This document shows, piece by piece, positions 29,973 through 36,624 of a stretch of 64,000 bases of DNA. Each line of letters starts with the position of its first letter. Within the stretch, counting starts at the first letter, position 1. The notes beneath the pieces were generated by a model. The model searched no databases and was not told where the DNA came from. It saw nothing but the letters and a program-made list of their open reading frames with translations. Both the position numbers and the translations under genes were made by a program. The DNA is from Bacillota bacterium (lineage in GTDB: Bacteria > Bacillota > Clostridia > Christensenellales > SZUA-584): the NCBI GenBank assembly GCA_023391105.1, contig JAEWBO010000013.1, forward strand, positions 10,433 through 74,432, read 5' to 3'.

Positions 29973-30650
29973 TTATGTTTTAAAGATGTAGCCGTAGCCC
30001 CAAACAGTCTCTAAATACTTGTGATATGGTTTTATATTTTCACGGAGCGTCTTGATATGTGTATCCACTGTGCGATCGGTACCGAAGAAATCCTCTCCCC
30101 AGACCTCTCTTAATATCATATCCCGGGAAAAAGCGCGATTGTGGTTTTTGGCAAGAAAAACGAGCAGCTTGTATTCCTTGGGCGTTAATAGTATACCTTC
30201 CCCGTCCACATAGACAATATGTGACACGACATCAATGCACAAACCGTCGAAAATGAGCCGTCGCGGTGTATATTCCTCGTGATGGGCGCTGTGTCGCAGC
30301 AAAACGTGAATGCGGGCCATGAGCACCTTGCACGAATAGGGGCTGTTTAAAAAGTCATCTACGCCAAGCTCGAAGAAAAAAAGCTTTTGCTCTTCGCTTC
30401 CGTTCCTGGACAGTATGATGATTGGCGTTTGTGAGCTTTTCCGAATCTGCCGGCACACATGCCATGCGTCCAGCTCAGGAAGCTCCGCATTCATGACGAT
30501 AATATGATAGTCATGACGCCTGAACATTTTTAGTGCGGCGATACCGTCGGCGGCTTCGTCAACGACAAAGTTCTCAAGTGCTGCGTGTGTTTTTACCGTT
30601 GCTCTCAAATCTGCTGCCGGATCGACGACCAATAAGCAAATCTCACGCAT
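29973..30650 (-). CDS. OmpR-family response regulator with degenerate (pseudo-)receiver domain, no cognate kinase adjacent
   Basis: The winged-helix C-terminus is intact (LTPKEYKLLVFLAKN..., VWGYGYIF). The receiver has N54 where the phospho-Asp is expected (IIVMNAELP) and S where the conserved Lys is expected (FLNSPY). Confidence 0.85.
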   Translation of the reverse strand: MREICLLVVDPAADLRATVKTHAALENFVVDEAADGIAALKMFRRHDYHIIVMNAELPELDAWHVCRQIRKSSQTPIIILSRNGSEEQKLFFFELGVDDFLNSPYSCKVLMARIHVLLRHSAHHEEYTPRRLIFDGLCIDVVSHIVYVDGEGILLTPKEYKLLVFLAKNHNRAFSRDMILREVWGEDFFGTDRTVDTHIKTLRENIKPYHKYLETVWGYGYIFKT

Positions 30651-30962: not shown

Positions 30963-31475
30963 ATGAGCACGAAACCTGTCGAAGCCACGTGTGGCTGCTG
31001 CAAGGAATGCAACGATGACAAATTCGCAGCCATTGCCAATGTGATTGATTTGTACAAGGATAAGGAAGGAAGCCTGATTCAGATACTCCATCTTGCGCAG
31101 CAGATTTATGGCTATCTGCCGCTTGATGTTCAGGTGTTCATTGCAGATTCGCTTCATATTCCTCTCTCAGAGATATCCGGTGTGATCACCTTCTACTCGT
31201 TTTTCTCCACAGAGCCAAGAGGACAGCACACCATCCGTGTCTGCCTTGGAACGGCTTGTTACGTAAGAGGCGGTAAAAAAATCGTTGAAAGCCTCAAGGA
31301 AAAGCTGGACGTGGACGTCGGCGGCACCACCATGGACGGCAAATTCACTTTCGAAGTTGCAAGATGCATCGGCGCATGCGGGCTTGCCCCGGCGATGATG
31401 ATAGACGACGTTGTCTACAAGCAGGTCAATGTCAACAAATTGAATGCGATATTGGCTAAATATGATAACGAATAA
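30963..31475 (+). CDS. hydC: [FeFe]-hydrogenase complex subunit, NuoE/HydC-like [2Fe-2S] protein
   Basis: VCLGTACYVRGG...CIGACGLAP thioredoxin-like 2Fe-2S motif. Cys-rich N-terminus CGCCKEC. Confidence 0.85.
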   Translation: MSTKPVEATCGCCKECNDDKFAAIANVIDLYKDKEGSLIQILHLAQQIYGYLPLDVQVFIADSLHIPLSEISGVITFYSFFSTEPRGQHTIRVCLGTACYVRGGKKIVESLKEKLDVDVGGTTMDGKFTFEVARCIGACGLAPAMMIDDVVYKQVNVNKLNAILAKYDNE

Positions 31476-31488
31476 GGAGGTGAACGAA

Positions 31489-34400
31489 ATGAAATCAGGC
31501 AAAATTGAATCAATTGACCAACTCAATGGGATTAAAGAGAAATATAATTCAGATCTGGAAACGTACAAATACAGGATATTCGTCTGTGCAGGCGCAGGCT
31601 GCGTATCATCAAACTGTGCTCTTGTTCGGGATGCTGTCATTAGCGAGATCATAAGCATCGGCATGCAGAATGAGGTTAAGGTGTTTGAAACTGGCTGTAT
31701 GGGAACCTGCGCGGTTGGCCCAGTGATGCTTGTGATGCCGGATAAGGTTTTCTACACCGATCTCAATGAAGAAAAAGCCAGGCAGATCGTCCGTACGCAT
31801 ATTAAAAACGGCCATACGATCGTCCCATATACGTTCTATGACTATTCGCTTGGTAAGCATGTTCCGTGCATCGACGATATTGCATTCTTTAAAAAGCAGG
31901 TTAAAATCGCGCTGCGGAACTGCGGCTCGATGGAATATGCGGATATCGAAGCATATATAGCCCGGGACGGCTATTATGCCGCTTATAAAGCGCTAAAGGA
32001 TATGACGCCGCAAACAATTGTGCAGGAGGTCAAGACATCAGGCATCAAGGGACGCGGCGGTGCGGGCTTCCCCACGGGCATCAAATGGGAAGCGGCTCAG
32101 AAACAGAAAAGTGACAAAAAATATATCGTCTGCAACGCCGACGAAGGCGACCCCGGTGCTTTCATGGACAGAAGCATTATCGAGGGTGATCCCCATACCG
32201 TCATCGAGGGTATGATGATTGGCGGATATGCCATAGGAGCCACGACGGGTTATATCTACGTGCGTGCTGAGTACCCCATCGCAGTAGACAGAATGACGGC
32301 GGCGCTTTATGAGGCAAGAAGCAGAGGTCTGCTCGGGAAAGACATATTCGGAAGCGGTTTTTCGTTTGATATCGAGCTCAGAATCGGTGCGGGCGCTTTT
32401 GTATGCGGCGAAGAAACATCGCTAATGGCATCAATTGAGGGTCATCGCGGAGAACCCAAGCAAAAACCGCCTTTCCCGTTCCAGAAAGGCCTCTTTGGGA
32501 AGCCAACAATCATCAATAATGTGGAGACATATGCCAGCATTGCGATGATCATACTCAACGGCGGCGAGTGGTACACGCAATTCGGGACAGAAAATAGCAA
32601 GGGCACAAAGGTTTTTGCACTTGCAGGTGACGTCATGAACACGGGCATCGTTGAGGTGCCCATCGGTATTCCGCTCGGAGACATAATATTTGAAATCGGC
32701 GGCGGAACCGCCAACAAGAAGAAGTTCAAATCCGCACAAATCGGCGGGCCTTCAGGCGGCTGCATTACGACAGATAACCTCAATGTACCGACGGACTATG
32801 AACCATTAAAAGAGCTTGGCGCGATCATGGGATCGGGAGGGCTTATCGTCATGAACGAGGATGCCTGTATGGTCGATACCGCGCGATTTTTTATGGATTT
32901 CATAAAGGATGAGTCCTGCGGCAAATGCACGGCCTGTCGTATCGGCACCAAGCGCATGCTTGAGATACTCGAGCGCATCACGCGGGGCGAAGGCGAAGAA
33001 GGTGATGTGGAGCTATTAATCGAGCTTGGTGAGACAATCCAGGAGACGGCTATGTGCGGCCTCGGACAGACGGCACCGAATCCTGTGCTCTCAACTATTA
33101 AGTATTTTCGCGAAGAATATGACGAGCATATTAGAAACAAGTATTGCCGCGCGGGTGTGTGCAGCGATCTGTTCATTTCGCCGTGTGAGAACACCTGTCC
33201 CGCTAATGTCAATGTTCCGGGATATATGTCGCTTATCGCCGCAGGGCGGTTCAACGATGCCTACAAATTGATCCGGCAGGAAAACCCCTTCCCTGCCGTT
33301 TGCGGTCGTATCTGCACACGGCCCTGTGAGAGCAAATGCCGCAGGCGCACGGTGGACGAAGCGCTGGCCATTTGCGATCTCAAGAGGTTTGTTGCTGACT
33401 ACGCGATGAATAACAGTAAGAATACGTATCAGACCGATGTTGTGTTCCCGAAAAACGGGAAAAACATCGCAGTCATCGGTGCGGGCGCGTCGGGGCTGAC
33501 ATGCGCATATTATCTCGCGCGTATCGGTTATGACGTGGACGTGTTCGAATCGCATAACACAGCGGGCGGTGTGCTGGCATATGGCATTCCGGAATACCGC
33601 CTCCCCAAGGATGTGCTTGATGATGAAGTCAAGCTTATCGAGCAAACGGGTGTCAAAATTCATCTGAATACTGAGGTGGGCCGTGACATTATGTTTAAAG
33701 AGCTCAAGGCCACATATGACGCGATTTACATCGCAACGGGTACACAACTGCCGCAAAAGATCAATGTGCCTGGAGAAAGCCTGCCAGGCGTTGTGCATGG
33801 CATCAAGTTCTTAAAAAAAGCCAACACGCACGCTCCGATCGAAATGGGTAAAAACGTGGTCGTTATCGGCGGCGGCAACACAGCGATAGACTCCGCAAGG
33901 ACAGCGCTTCGGCTGGGAGCGGATAAGGTCACGATACTCTACAGACGCACCTGCGATTCAATGCCGGCATACGAACAAGAAATACGCGAAGCCGTTGAAG
34001 AAGGCATTGAGCTCATACCGCTTGCTGCACCCGTGCGGTTCATTCCGGGCCCAGATGGTCGGGTGTCAAAAATCGAATGTGTCAGGATGTGCCTTGGAGA
34101 TTTTGATGCCTCTTGCCGCAGGCGCAGCGTTTATGTGGAGGATTCAAACTTCTTCATTGATGCCGACATGGTTATCCCTGCGGTCAGCCAGTTTGCGGAC
34201 TTTCCGTTCATCGGGAAAGACGAAATTGGACTCACACCCTGGGGCACGTTCATACTGCGAAGCGACACGCAGATGACCACGATGGATGGCGTATTTGCAG
34301 GCGGTGACGTCACCCGTGGGCCGGATGAGGTGATACGCGCGATTGCAGACGGCAAAAATGCCGCGATTTCGATCGACAAATATCTTGGCGGTAAAGGACA

Positions 34401-34593
34401 TCTCAATAAGGGTGAGCCAATAGATATTCCCGAAATCACAGATGAAGACGATATTGTGGCTCATGGCCGGTTTGATCTTGAAATACTTGATCCGAAGACG
34501 CGCAAATATTCGTTCGATGAAGTGATTAAGGGTTACCATAAGCTCAACGCGATGGCAGAAGCTATGCGCTGTCTGCATTGTGAAAGGAGGTAG
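31489..34593 (+). CDS. hydB: NuoF/HydB-like flavoprotein fused to a GltD/NfnB-like NADPH-dependent FAD oxidoreductase module
   Basis: ATG at 31489 after AAGGAGG. N-terminal 2Fe-2S domain, GRGGAGFPTG (FMN) and ESCGKCTACRIG (4Fe-4S). From ~33140: CENTCPANV...CGRICTRPCESKC, VIGAGASGLTCAYYL (FAD) and VVIGGGNTAIDSAR (NADPH). Confidence 0.85.
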   Translation: MKSGKIESIDQLNGIKEKYNSDLETYKYRIFVCAGAGCVSSNCALVRDAVISEIISIGMQNEVKVFETGCMGTCAVGPVMLVMPDKVFYTDLNEEKARQIVRTHIKNGHTIVPYTFYDYSLGKHVPCIDDIAFFKKQVKIALRNCGSMEYADIEAYIARDGYYAAYKALKDMTPQTIVQEVKTSGIKGRGGAGFPTGIKWEAAQKQKSDKKYIVCNADEGDPGAFMDRSIIEGDPHTVIEGMMIGGYAIGATTGYIYVRAEYPIAVDRMTAALYEARSRGLLGKDIFGSGFSFDIELRIGAGAFVCGEETSLMASIEGHRGEPKQKPPFPFQKGLFGKPTIINNVETYASIAMIILNGGEWYTQFGTENSKGTKVFALAGDVMNTGIVEVPIGIPLGDIIFEIGGGTANKKKFKSAQIGGPSGGCITTDNLNVPTDYEPLKELGAIMGSGGLIVMNEDACMVDTARFFMDFIKDESCGKCTACRIGTKRMLEILERITRGEGEEGDVELLIELGETIQETAMCGLGQTAPNPVLSTIKYFREEYDEHIRNKYCRAGVCSDLFISPCENTCPANVNVPGYMSLIAAGRFNDAYKLIRQENPFPAVCGRICTRPCESKCRRRTVDEALAICDLKRFVADYAMNNSKNTYQTDVVFPKNGKNIAVIGAGASGLTCAYYLARIGYDVDVFESHNTAGGVLAYGIPEYRLPKDVLDDEVKLIEQTGVKIHLNTEVGRDIMFKELKATYDAIYIATGTQLPQKINVPGESLPGVVHGIKFLKKANTHAPIEMGKNVVVIGGGNTAIDSARTALRLGADKVTILYRRTCDSMPAYEQEIREAVEEGIELIPLAAPVRFIPGPDGRVSKIECVRMCLGDFDASCRRRSVYVEDSNFFIDADMVIPAVSQFADFPFIGKDEIGLTPWGTFILRSDTQMTTMDGVFAGGDVTRGPDEVIRAIADGKNAAISIDKYLGGKGHLNKGEPIDIPEITDEDDIVAHGRFDLEILDPKTRKYSFDEVIKGYHKLNAMAEAMRCLHCERR

Positions 34594-34599
34594 TCATTG

Positions 34600-36624
34600 A
34601 TGATTAATTTGCAGATTAACGGCCGCTTAGTGACTGTTCCCAAGGATTATACCATCATGGATGCAGCCAAAACTGTGGGAATCAAAATACCTGGACTTTG
34701 CCAGATGGACGGTGTTCACCAGTTTGGTTCCTGCCGCATTTGTGTTGTGGAGGTCGAAGGTGCGAAAACCTTGCAGGCGTCTTGCCTGGCGAAGGTCGCC
34801 GAAGGTATGGTTGTGGAGACAAATACGGCAAAGGTGAGAAACGCGCGGCGTGTGCTCTATGAGCTGCTGCTTTCAGATCATGATAAGGACTGCTTAAGCT
34901 GTACGAGAAACCAGAGCTGTGAGCTTCAAGAGCTCGGCAAAATTCTCGGTGTAAGTGAATCGCGTTTCGACGGCGAACATTCGGAATTTAATCTTGACTC
35001 CTCCGTATCCATTACGCGAAATATGTCCAAATGCGTGCTGTGCAGGCGATGTGTCACTGTCTGCAACGAAATTCAGGGAACCGGCATACTCAATGCGCAA
35101 AACCGCGGTTTCCAGACTGTGATAGGCCCCGCGATGGATTTAAAGCTTGGCACCGTCAACTGCGTATTCTGCGGACAGTGTACGGTGGTGTGCCCGGTGG
35201 GTGCGCTTAAAGAAACAGATGCCATCCAACCTGTCTGGAAGGCGCTCAGCGATGAGAAAAAAAGATGTGTGGTACAGGTGGCTCCTGCGATTCGGGTAGC
35301 GATCGGAGAGGAGTTCGGGTATGAACCCGGTGCACGTGTGACGGGTAAGCTGGCGCAGGCTCTTTCTACGCTGGGGTTTGACGATATATTTGATACAAAT
35401 TTCGCCGCTGATCTCACGATTATGGAGGAAGGCACAGAATTTTTGACACGTGTGAAAAGAGCGCTGACCGGCGGTGAAGCCGCATTGCCGATGATTACAT
35501 CGTGCAGCCCCGGTTGGATTAAATACATAGAGCATTCCTACACTGATCTTCTCCCCCATCTCTCCACATGCAAATCGCCGCATACCATGCTGGGTGCGCT
35601 GGTCAAATCGTTCTATGCTGAAAAAATCGGCTATGATCCGAAGGACATGTACGTGGTGTCGGTGATGCCGTGTACCGCCAAGAAGTTTGAGATCAGCCGT
35701 CATGAGATGTGCAATAATGATGTTCCCAATGTGGATGCGGTGCTCACAACAAGAGAGCTTGGGCAAATGGTACGTGAAGCGGGTATTGACTTTGCTTTGC
35801 TGGAGGATCGTGAGTTTGATAATCCGCTTGGAATGTCGACGGGCGCTGCCGATATTTTCGGTGTGACAGGAGGCGTCATGGAAGCCGCATTGCGCACTGT
35901 ATACGAGCTTGTGACGGGGCGCGAACTACCGTTTGACAAGCTGCATGTCGCACCTATTGTGGGGTTAGAGCAAATAAAAACTGCTGAGATAAAGATTGAG
36001 GATACACTGCCGAATTATAAGTTCCTTGAAGGCATTGTCGTCAAGGTAGCCGTGACGAGCGGCCTTTCAGGCGCGAAGATACTCATGGATCAGATTAAAA
36101 ACGGTGAATCGCCCTATCACTTCATCGAAGTGATGGGCTGTCCCAGCGGATGTATCATGGGAGGCGGTCAACCGAGATCAAAAGATGTTGATGTGAGGAA
36201 AAAACGTCTCCAGGGTATTTACGACGAGGATGAAGCAAAGGTCATTCGGAAATCGCATGATAACCCATCCGTTATAAAGCTTTATGAAGAGTACCTTGAA
36301 CTTCCCAACAGCCATGTGTCACACAAGCTGCTGCATACGCATTATGTCAAACGCGGACGGTTTAATGAGTTCCTGGAGGACGAATATGTGAATGAAGAGG
36401 TGATTCCTATGACGCAAAAGAACAAAGCTTCGTCAAATCAGTCGCAAAAAAAAACCGCTCAGGAACGCGCATCCAGACGGGTTCATGAGGACTTAGAGTC
36501 GGTTAGGGTGATGTCTTTAGAGGCTGAGGTCACTCGGCTCAAACAGGAATTATCCGATTCTCAGGAGACTGTCGAGATACTAAAAGATGTGATGAGCGAT
36601 TACGCTAAGAAACCCAAACGATAA
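34600..36624 (+). CDS. hydA: [FeFe]-hydrogenase catalytic subunit (M3-type accessory clusters) with variant L1 motif and C-terminal extension
   Basis: 2Fe-2S N-domain, HDKDCLSCTRNQSC, two CxxCxxCxxxC ferredoxin motifs. H-cluster motifs are L1 TSCSPGW, L2 MPCTAKKFE, L3 EVMGCPSGCIMGGGQP. ATG at 34600 follows GAAAGGAGG. Confidence 0.9.
   Translation: MINLQINGRLVTVPKDYTIMDAAKTVGIKIPGLCQMDGVHQFGSCRICVVEVEGAKTLQASCLAKVAEGMVVETNTAKVRNARRVLYELLLSDHDKDCLSCTRNQSCELQELGKILGVSESRFDGEHSEFNLDSSVSITRNMSKCVLCRRCVTVCNEIQGTGILNAQNRGFQTVIGPAMDLKLGTVNCVFCGQCTVVCPVGALKETDAIQPVWKALSDEKKRCVVQVAPAIRVAIGEEFGYEPGARVTGKLAQALSTLGFDDIFDTNFAADLTIMEEGTEFLTRVKRALTGGEAALPMITSCSPGWIKYIEHSYTDLLPHLSTCKSPHTMLGALVKSFYAEKIGYDPKDMYVVSVMPCTAKKFEISRHEMCNNDVPNVDAVLTTRELGQMVREAGIDFALLEDREFDNPLGMSTGAADIFGVTGGVMEAALRTVYELVTGRELPFDKLHVAPIVGLEQIKTAEIKIEDTLPNYKFLEGIVVKVAVTSGLSGAKILMDQIKNGESPYHFIEVMGCPSGCIMGGGQPRSKDVDVRKKRLQGIYDEDEAKVIRKSHDNPSVIKLYEEYLELPNSHVSHKLLHTHYVKRGRFNEFLEDEYVNEEVIPMTQKNKASSNQSQKKTAQERASRRVHEDLESVRVMSLEAEVTRLKQELSDSQETVEILKDVMSDYAKKPKR

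Follow-up and report, generated by a model that had tools for sequence, protein, structure and literature searches.

A trimeric [FeFe]-hydrogenase operon of Clostridia in which a GltD-type FAD/NADP(H) module takes the place of the ferredoxin-docking domain of HydB

The reference enzymes of the Bfu family among hydrogenases are the HydABC complexes of Acetobacterium woodii and Thermoanaerobacter kivui (PDB 7q4v, 8a5e and 8a6t; PMC10021017). In the model put forward for such canonical enzymes, mid-potential electrons reach the flavin mononucleotide (FMN) via cluster B1, and the [2Fe-2S] cluster of HydC swings and passes low-potential electrons to clusters B3 and B4, where ferredoxin docks (PMC10021017, PMC12018979). 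A second reference group is formed by the Stn/Nfn-Bfu (NfnABC) enzymes of Sporomusa ovata, Caldicellulosiruptor saccharolyticus and Thermococcus sibiricus (PDB 8oh5, 9bov and 9n5u; PMC10482914, PMC12018979), and a third by the classical NfnAB of Thermotoga maritima (4ylf) and Pyrococcus furiosus (5jca). Here we describe an operon, hydC-hydB::gltD-hydA, that lies in a window of 64,000 nucleotides from a Bacillota bacterium of the Christensenellales (assembly GCA_023391105.1, contig JAEWBO010000013.1, positions 10,433 to 74,432), and whose central gene encodes a HydB continued by a GltD-type module that binds flavin adenine dinucleotide (FAD) and NADP(H), as predicted from its motifs. Unless a contig is named, coordinates are those of the window.

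Architecture of the fused HydB subunit

The gene hydB::gltD occupies 31489..34593 of the forward strand, stop codon included, between hydC upstream and hydA downstream. Its open frame runs from 31444 to 34593 without any internal stop; the start is the ATG at 31489, with an AAGGAGG ribosome-binding site at 31475-31481, 8 nucleotides before it, and the frame closes with a TAG at 34591-34593. The single uninterrupted gene for 1034 residues claimed in the initial annotation is thus borne out, and the motifs quoted there (CENTCP, CGRICTRPCESKC, VIGAGASGLTCAYYL and VVIGGGNTAIDSAR) are all present in the translation. Profile hidden Markov models (HMMs) divide the product into a NuoF-type and a GltD-type half. 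In the numbering of the 1049-residue translation from 31444, from which 15 is to be subtracted for the true protein, Pfam places 2Fe-2S_thioredx at 42-117, Complex1_51K at 196-367 (E 2e-47), NADH_4Fe-4S at 478-562 (E 2e-34), Fer4_20 at 569-657 (E 1e-24) and Pyr_redox_2 at 674-970 (E 1e-29; also Pyr_redox and NAD_binding_8), together with a match to SLBB, and the NCBIfam models for NuoF extend over 163-563 and those for GltD, PRK12771 and PRK12814 over 531-1047. An AlphaFold2 model of the 1034-residue protein has a mean predicted local distance difference test score (pLDDT) of 85 and a predicted template modelling score (pTM) of 0.80. When this model was used in a fold search no PDB chain spanned both halves (best query-normalised TM-score 0.53): HydB chains matched the first half and the Nfn-BfuA, StnC and NfnB modules the second, with TM-scores of 0.85-0.95, normalised to the target, for the N-terminal half against HydB/NfnB chains.

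Judged by these alignments, the first 562 residues are a bifurcating-type HydB comprising an N-terminal [2Fe-2S] domain, an FMN/NADH site, cluster B1 and a zinc hinge. Residues 28-562 align end to end with A. woodii HydB (7q4v_B; E 7e-209, 55% identity in the fold alignment) and comparably with the NiFe-HydB of A. mobile (7t2r_B; E 6e-208), and they align also with T. kivui 8a6t_B and S. ovata StnB 8oh5_B. The thioredoxin-like [2Fe-2S] domain (31567..31794) holds the B5 site, formed by Cys33, Cys38, Cys70 and Cys74. It is followed by the NuoF-like region (32029..33129; Complex1_51K, SLBB and NADH_4Fe-4S), with AFM at residues 224-226, CGEE at 306-309 and GGPSGGC at 419-425, and by the zinc-hinge motif H547-x5-C553-x4-C558 (33127..33162), whose fourth ligand is C425 and which is the last stretch held in common with canonical HydB. 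Xiao et al. (PMC12018979) found that AFM, GGPSG, the B2/Zn hinge and the N-terminal [2Fe-2S] cysteines separate Bfu proteins from non-bifurcating NuoF homologues. AFM, GGPSG (419-423), the hinge ligands C425, H547, C553 and C558 and the four N-terminal cysteines are invariant in 39 aligned orthologues and in 52 orthologous open reading frames (ORFs). The Glu of CGEE (E309) is likewise invariant in the 39; T. kivui HydB has Ser at this position (CGES), and T. kivui HydABC is NADP+-dependent. A role in selecting NADH over NADPH has been assigned to this Glu (PMC12018979).

Similarity to all solved HydB chains stops at residue 562, at 'CRAGVCSDLF', just past the hinge, and 'PCENTCP', the start of the GltD di-cluster domain, is found seven residues beyond the last hinge Cys. 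No Fer4-type Pfam match to the 2x[4Fe-4S] ferredoxin-like domain (two CX2CX2CX3CP motifs, clusters B3/B4) was obtained in the fused HydB; the two paralogous HydBs of the same genome continue past the hinge with two CX2CX2CX3C motifs. In our reading of the alignments, the ferredoxin-docking B3/B4 domain is replaced, and not extended, by a GltD module of ~470 residues. The initial annotation had the 2x[4Fe-4S] domain followed by GltD; the module stands, the retained ferredoxin domain does not, since GltD takes its place, and the coupling to 'possibly ferredoxin' suggested there becomes less likely rather than more.

The module consists of a GltD-type helical di-cluster domain (Fer4_20; 33148..33414), with C566, C570, C609, C613, C617 and Lys632 of the sequence LKRF, of an FAD fold (GAGASG, residues 664-669) and an NADP(H) fold (GGGNTAID, 794-801; YRR, 818-820) at 33463..34353, and of a C-terminal tail (34456..34590) that ends in R1027-C1028-L-H-C1031. 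Residues 565-1032 find their best PDB match in Nfn-BfuA (9bov_A residues 102-566, E 2e-123), with 9n5u_A and StnC (8oh5_C residues 102-566) also at the top, and classical NfnB (4ylf_B, E 2e-104) ranks next. By HMMER, residues 1001-1033 ('...LDPKTRKYSFDEVIKGYHKLNAMAEAMRCLHCE') are aligned to residues 11-43 of T. maritima NfnB, that is, to its N-terminus, to which the tail is the counterpart, and the tail through Cys1031 is also aligned to StnC/Nfn-BfuA up to residue 566. Thus the module is circularly permuted with respect to NfnB/GltD, as it is in StnC, and the final RCLHC is predicted to supply the two Cys completing the first [4Fe-4S] site begun by C566 and C570. Two sets, of 19 and of 39 sequences, show no variation at R1027, C1028 and C1031, including proteins whose identity falls as low as 33%, and nearly every orthologue stops 2-4 residues past RCLxC. 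That 'CLHCERR' might be a truncated relic was considered and rejected, since it is invariant and makes up the second half of a cluster motif that is split.

The ligand set of the module amounts to seven Cys and K632, all of them invariant. The latter aligns with K170 of StnC, a position at which classical NfnB, including this genome's own NfnB, has Glu. GAGASG, GGGNTAID and YRR are invariant in the 39 aligned sequences and the 52 orthologous ORFs, none of the dinucleotide-binding residues being lost on alignment, and the GGGxxAxD and YRR of the GltD site match the NADPH-binding StnC, Nfn-BfuA and NfnB. In StnC the FAD of such a permuted, Lys-ligated module is non-bifurcating and is the entry point of NADPH (PMC10482914). 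The initial annotation had likened the locus to Nfn/Stn-type transhydrogenases: a relation to the Stn/Nfn module does exist, but its permutation and Lys ligand assign the module to the Stn/Nfn-Bfu type, not to the classical, bifurcating NfnB type. That one polypeptide should carry both an FMN/NAD(H) and an FAD/NADP(H) site within a hydC-hydB-hydA operon is upheld by the HMMs, by the sequence and fold searches in the PDB and by motif conservation.

The arrangement can be compared with the three reference systems. With HydABC of A. woodii and T. kivui the locus shares the set of three genes and their order, the HydC partner, the N-terminal 2Fe-2S domain, the FMN site, B1 and the zinc hinge; it differs in having the GltD module instead of their B3/B4 ferredoxin-docking domain, an extra Cys pair at the N-terminus of HydC and, in this subclade, a HydA tail of ~84 residues. 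The Stn/Nfn-Bfu enzymes have the same permuted GltD module (starting with PCxxxCP and ending with RCLxC, with the Lys ligand and YRR) and a HydBC-type bifurcating core. Their module, however, sits in a NuoG/HydA-like subunit without H-cluster and feeds the mid-potential path, and their HydB keeps the ferredoxin domain, whereas in the present locus it is HydB that carries the module, where its ferredoxin domain would otherwise stand, and a genuine HydA with all three H-cluster motifs serves as third subunit. Classical NfnAB has in common with the locus the GltD fold, two [4Fe-4S] clusters, FAD and NADPH, but its NfnB is in native order with an N-terminal RCLxC, has a Glu ligand and a bifurcating FAD, and works with an NfnA partner.

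Distribution and origin of the fusion

A word-indexed search returned about 8000 relatives, and nearly all of the best 120 clusters (at 90% identity) had this set of domains and a length of 1030-1034 residues. When representatives of clusters at 50% identity were searched exhaustively with HMMER, full-length fusions were recovered down to 34% identity. In nucleotide sequence the fusion was found as 52 intact ORFs from 52 species-level genomes, with every cofactor motif in each, and no frameshift or stop separates the halves in any of them. About 55 loci all have the order hydC-hydB::gltD-hydA, and in them one half of the fused gene continues into the other without an intervening codon. Among species genomes of GTDB the carriers belong to Christensenellales, Saccharofermentanales, Oscillospiraceae, Anaerovoracaceae, Peptostreptococcales, Vallitaleaceae and Clostridium sediminicola, and versions at 44% identity occur in Dehalococcoidales and Oligoflexia. 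In a sample of 300 genomes spread evenly over the class, 24 carry the main type and six more a divergent type, so that about 8-10% of the sampled Clostridia genomes have the fusion.

A phylogeny of the NuoF core recovers the main fused type as a single clade, with a value of 98 in the Shimodaira-Hasegawa-like approximate likelihood ratio test (SH-aLRT), and places it as sister (97) to canonical ferredoxin-domain HydBs, including a paralogue of this same genome on contig C14. The Dehalococcoidales form and one further representative are placed elsewhere, and independent fusions are therefore possible. A tree of GltD puts the module inside the large family of permuted PRK12771/PRK12814/StnC proteins. 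Most simply, the fusion would have arisen when one domain was exchanged for another in a HydB of the A. woodii type.

Several side observations were made in the course of these searches. Some of the most distant relatives (P0126, P0128, P0130, P0139, P0143, P0147, P0169 and P0200) keep the permuted GltD with degenerate FMN/NADH and B1 motifs, and some of these have an extra Cys-rich C-terminal extension. P0126 (L094 5001-7997), considered as a natural experiment, proved uninformative, as it is an orphan gene with neither hydC nor hydA in its vicinity. A second, divergent fused subclade within Clostridia (L088-L092; genomes G073, G039, G237, G068 and G157), with 41-46% identity in the GltD half, has ~400-500 additional nucleotides separating the hydC match from the point where the hydB alignment begins. 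Some 2-3 kb upstream of its hydC stands a HydA-like gene (24-26% identity), possibly for a sensory hydrogenase. One operon (L015, JBLNCA010000025.1), 85-87% identical to the present one, belongs to a metagenome-assembled genome that bears the label 'Burkholderiales bacterium'; its contig, of 133 kb, most likely comes from Clostridia and was mis-binned or mislabelled. The pattern search also drew Stn-type loci (L063-L070 and L079), each with a hydC-like gene, a hydB-like gene with ferredoxin domain and a 2Fe-2S-GltD-NuoG-like gene, in Syntrophorhabdales, Elusimicrobia, Bacteroidota, Bipolaricaulota, Myxococcota and one Oscillospiraceae genome. A single clade (SH-aLRT 98) unites the HydB-like cores of these loci.

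Predicted electron flow and alternative explanations

From the composition of its subunits, the operon is predicted to encode a soluble three-subunit [FeFe]-hydrogenase of the HydABC/Bfu family. The gene hydC (30963..31475, forward strand) is the one directly upstream of the fused gene in all orthologous loci and encodes a NuoE/HydC-like protein of 170 residues with a thioredoxin-like [2Fe-2S] domain for cluster C1 (Pfam 2Fe-2S_thioredx, E 3e-50; NCBIfam HoxE/NuoE). Downstream, hydA (34600..36624, forward strand) encodes an M3-type [FeFe]-hydrogenase catalytic subunit of 674 residues according to Pfam and NCBIfam, which reaches 863 bits with the NCBIfam model FeFe_hydrog_A6 (NF040763; cut-off 765) and E 6e-183 with A. 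woodii HydA1 (7q4v_A). The H-cluster motifs, sought as L1 TSC[CS]P, L2 MPCxxKxxE and L3 ExMxCxxGCxxGGGQP, are all present (TSCSPGW, MPCTAKKFE and EVMGCPSGCIMGGGQP), and all three are kept in 46/46 partner HydAs, across about 60% sequence divergence. TSCSP was ruled out as a defect, the active A. woodii HydA1 having the same motif, and 'group A6' was rejected as a means of telling the fused type apart, since the HydA of the canonical operon on contig C14 obtains a higher score with that model.

We propose, as the explanation we favour and at odds which we would place slightly under even, that the complex is a ferredoxin-independent hydrogenase coupling H2 to both NADH and NADPH. The low-potential branch leaving FMN, B1 and C1 would end in the GltD clusters instead of B3/B4, and continue to FAD and then to NADP+; NAD(H) would be handled at the FMN site, and NADP(H), via FAD, in ferredoxin's stead. 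The predicted reaction would be 2 H2 + NAD+ + NADP+ <-> NADH + NADPH + 2 H+, without ferredoxin. In a fermenter it would release H2 from NADH and NADPH as long as the H2 pressure stays below roughly 100 Pa, and in the reverse direction it would yield NADPH from H2. The position of the swap can be set beside an experiment on T. kivui HydB, in which a C-terminal deletion from within the hinge motif left low bifurcation activity only (PMC10021017); the natural replacement in the fused HydB begins just past the hinge where that deletion starts.

In this scheme NADP(H) would be the nucleotide of lower potential, with about -380 mV against about -280 mV for NAD(H). The E0' of H+/H2 is -414 mV. Table 1 of PMC9304861 gives physiological potentials of -280 mV for NAD, -380 mV for NADP and -500 mV for ferredoxin. 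By our own Nernst arithmetic NADH alone would equilibrate with about 3 Pa of H2, NADH plus NADPH with about 140 Pa and NADH plus ferredoxin with about 0.15 bar. The pairing of NADH with NADPH is thus energetically meaningful at the H2 levels of methanogenic habitats, although its drive is much weaker than that of ferredoxin.

The genomic setting indicates beside which enzymes such a hydrogenase would work. The assembly (2.77 Mb in 44 contigs, 91% complete) contains three HydABC operons, namely the fused one and two canonical ones, on contigs C14 (30400-35365, HydB of 596 residues) and C15 (6084-10143, HydB of 627 residues), in both of which HydB has the ferredoxin-like end domain; all seven hydrogenase genes of the genome are intact, and classical NfnAB is encoded on contig C1:23678-25905. 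The HydB of C15 has CGEG in place of CGEE at the nucleotide-selectivity site. Elsewhere, 22/24 carriers of the fusion have a canonical ferredoxin-domain HydB, the two without it being incomplete genomes (72% and 83% complete), and NfnA is also found in 22/24. Since carriers nearly always have canonical HydB and NfnA, the fused enzyme can be regarded as an addition with a role of its own and not as a substitute, and in the present genome it would act beside the two ferredoxin-dependent HydABC and the classical NfnAB. This co-occurrence is nearly universal in carriers and does not separate one mechanism from another.

Several points weigh against the proposed coupling of H2 to NADH and NADPH. 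It is deduced only from homology and from the position of the domains. Obligate coupling would bring a modest energetic gain only, as NADPH drives the reaction far less strongly than ferredoxin does. By analogy with NfnB, the GltD clusters could themselves dock ferredoxin. Finally, HydE, HydF and HydG were not found in this 91%-complete genome, nor was HydG in 20/30 carriers.

The first alternative, which we consider unlikely, is that of an uncoupled dual-cofactor hydrogenase, in which the GltD module is a second port of entry or exit and NADH or NADPH each exchange independently with no obligatory confurcation or bifurcation. Two nucleotide sites connected to a single iron-sulfur wire are most simply understood in this way, precedents exist in non-bifurcating NADH-dependent HydAB(C) enzymes (PMC7311640, PMC9304861), and NADPH and H2 differ little in potential, so that thermodynamics does not demand coupling at low H2. 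Nevertheless the N-terminal half keeps AFM, GGPSG, the hinge His and the N-terminal 2Fe-2S domain, along with a full HydC partner, features that the characterised non-bifurcating homologues do not have (PMC9304861), and the module is attached at the hinge of the gated low-potential branch and not on the HydA side.

A more elaborate enzyme with four partners, in line with the 'possibly ferredoxin' of the initial annotation, having an NfnB-like bifurcating FAD and ferredoxin docking at the outer [4Fe-4S] cluster, and thus merging Nfn transhydrogenation with H2 turnover, seems to us less probable again. The module is indeed homologous to NfnB (E 2e-104 to 4ylf_B), which binds ferredoxin at its clusters (PMC10482914), and an Arg near the N5 of FAD is conserved in NfnB and StnC, a bifurcating FAD being compatible with the sequence. 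Yet the permuted order and the Lys ligand put the module with the Stn type and not with the native-order, Glu-ligated NfnB, the FAD of StnC has been shown to be non-bifurcating (PMC10482914), there is no NfnA-like partner in the fused operon, and the known ferredoxin-docking domain of Bfu enzymes is exactly the part that is missing.

A third alternative arises from the maturases. No match above the cut-off of TIGR03955, TIGR03918 or TIGR03956 was obtained for HydE, HydF or HydG in the assembly, and tblastn with same-genus HydE, HydG and AspA gave no match anywhere in it, so the three maturases are likely absent from the genome, with the assembly at 91% completeness. In another genome of the genus (G310) hydE-hydG-hydF-aspA follow directly after a sugar ABC transporter; the orthologous transporter here (81-83% identity) is located mid-contig in a contig of 190 kb, and synteny ends exactly at the end of the transporter (C11:~179871). 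Beyond this genome only HydG was surveyed, by a search with a pre-filter in which positives and negatives arose within the same runs. HydG was found in 4/21 relatives, although the hydrogenase genes are intact in all 21, was not found in 12/13 genomes of the genus, and was present in 10/30 carriers of the fusion, the negatives including one genome in a single contig and two in three contigs. Active [FeFe]-hydrogenases have been reported in maturase-less archaea and protists, with an alternative route of maturation proposed (PMC11216029); we found no description of this paradox for Clostridia in the literature.

It might then be argued that the complex is not a working hydrogenase in this organism, HydA having iron-sulfur clusters only, and that it is either an Stn-like NADH:NADP+ oxidoreductase or decaying, an outcome to which we give little credit. 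Besides the failure to find HydE, HydF and HydG, this explanation can draw on the absence of the maturation cluster at the mid-contig syntenic site and of HydG from 12/13 genomes of the genus and from closed or near-closed genomes of carriers, and on StnC, which in Stn is a HydA/NuoG-like subunit without H-cluster (PMC10482914). On the other hand, the conservation of the H-cluster motifs in every one of the 46 partner HydAs over about 60% divergence, and seven hydrogenase genes all intact, would be unexpected without a catalytic cluster, active enzymes without maturases are reported in archaea and protists (PMC11216029), and the assembly is only 91% complete. An artefact of assembly or sequencing, by which separate hydB and gltD-like genes were joined through a missed stop or frameshift, is a general possibility for any metagenome-assembled genome. 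Nothing specific in its favour was found, and it can practically be dismissed, as 52 independent genomes have one continuous frame in which the halves meet without an intervening codon, protein clusters of equal length number in the hundreds, the first cluster of the module needs Cys from both the junction and the C-terminus, and a canonical hydB would require a ferredoxin domain of its own, which is absent here.

Flanking genes, classification and significance

Features of the neighbouring genes were noted in addition. The N-terminus of HydC (30963-31060) has an extra Cys-rich stretch, CGCCKEC. In most HydC partners of fused HydBs it has a counterpart with CxC, CxxC or CC, and the region is devoid of Cys in both canonical HydC paralogues of this genome. 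This stretch may form an extra metal site at the interface with the GltD module. The C-terminus of HydA (36370-36621) is a tail of ~84 residues past the small-subunit-like domain, free of Cys, highly charged and coiled-coil-looking. Only relatives that share about 74% identity or more have this tail; neither A. woodii HydA nor the remaining members of the fused clade do. The AAGGAGG of hydA overlaps the TAG of hydB::gltD and its ATG comes 7 nucleotides later. Read-through into hydA, which is in the same frame two codons on (the TAG and one further codon), was considered and rejected because of this overlap, of the nearby ATG and of the fact that all orthologues end at RCLxC.

Divergent from the operon, on the reverse strand, is a gene for an OmpR-family response regulator with an atypical receiver (29973..30650), a possible regulator of the operon. 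Read by eye against OmpR, its receiver has Asn for the phospho-acceptor Asp and no conserved Lys, and one orthologue has Glu at the position of the Asp. No partner kinase is adjacent to it. Orthologues are encountered ~300 nucleotides upstream on the opposite strand in 16/52 loci, all of the closer subclade, and across the 52 loci this regulator, in that close subclade, was the only conserved neighbour of the fused operon found. A scan for promoters and terminators gave nothing over the shuffled background.

The architecture has been seen before and is common. The same arrangement was noted in the 2018 genome paper on Vallitalea guaymasensis L81 for its second trimeric hydrogenase (peg.3894-3896), and the authors speculated, from genome annotation only, on a link to glutamate metabolism (PMC6163223). 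Our set contains a Vallitaleaceae orthologue of the fused locus (L048). We found no biochemical study, assay or structure of a HydB-GltD fusion in the full-text literature, the only traces being the Vallitalea annotation and a rule of HydDB; papers on Thermoanaerobacterium, deep-sea Chloroflexi and Dehalobacteriia proved to concern other enzymes. We take IPR017896 to be the 4Fe-4S ferredoxin-type domain. It is among the InterPro domains by which Schut et al. (2022) defined their BfuB set, and if our assignment is right their census may have left out the fused proteins.

In HydDB (PMC5037454), group A2 of the [FeFe]-hydrogenases is 'glutamate synthase-linked, putative' and group A3 'bifurcating', A2 being assigned by the rule 'GltD but not NuoF'. 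The neighbour of hydA here has both the GltD domain, the marker of A2, and the NuoF domain, the marker of A3. By the 2016 HydDB rule the fused type is A3, and a 2026 pipeline that tests GltD first would call it A2; it falls between the two groups. Automated classifiers thus label the fused enzymes inconsistently as A2 or A3, and the physiology predicted from such labels in metagenome surveys is therefore unreliable.

The widest reading, which we regard as possible but rather doubtful, would make this the first Bfu-family enzyme with a gated low-potential branch ending in a pyridine nucleotide, that is, an NADH/NADPH-confurcating hydrogenase in roughly one in ten Clostridia species, matured in many of them without HydE, HydF and HydG via a further bacterial route to the H-cluster. 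The absence of HydG in many carriers, if confirmed, extends the puzzle of maturase-less [FeFe]-hydrogenases from archaea and protists to common bacteria. The natural exchange of a ferredoxin-docking domain for a two-electron acceptor module offers a clean test of the gated low-potential branch, and a hydrogenase coupling H2 to NADH and NADPH would add a direct link between H2 and NADPH to the redox-balance models of gut, rumen and digester Clostridia.

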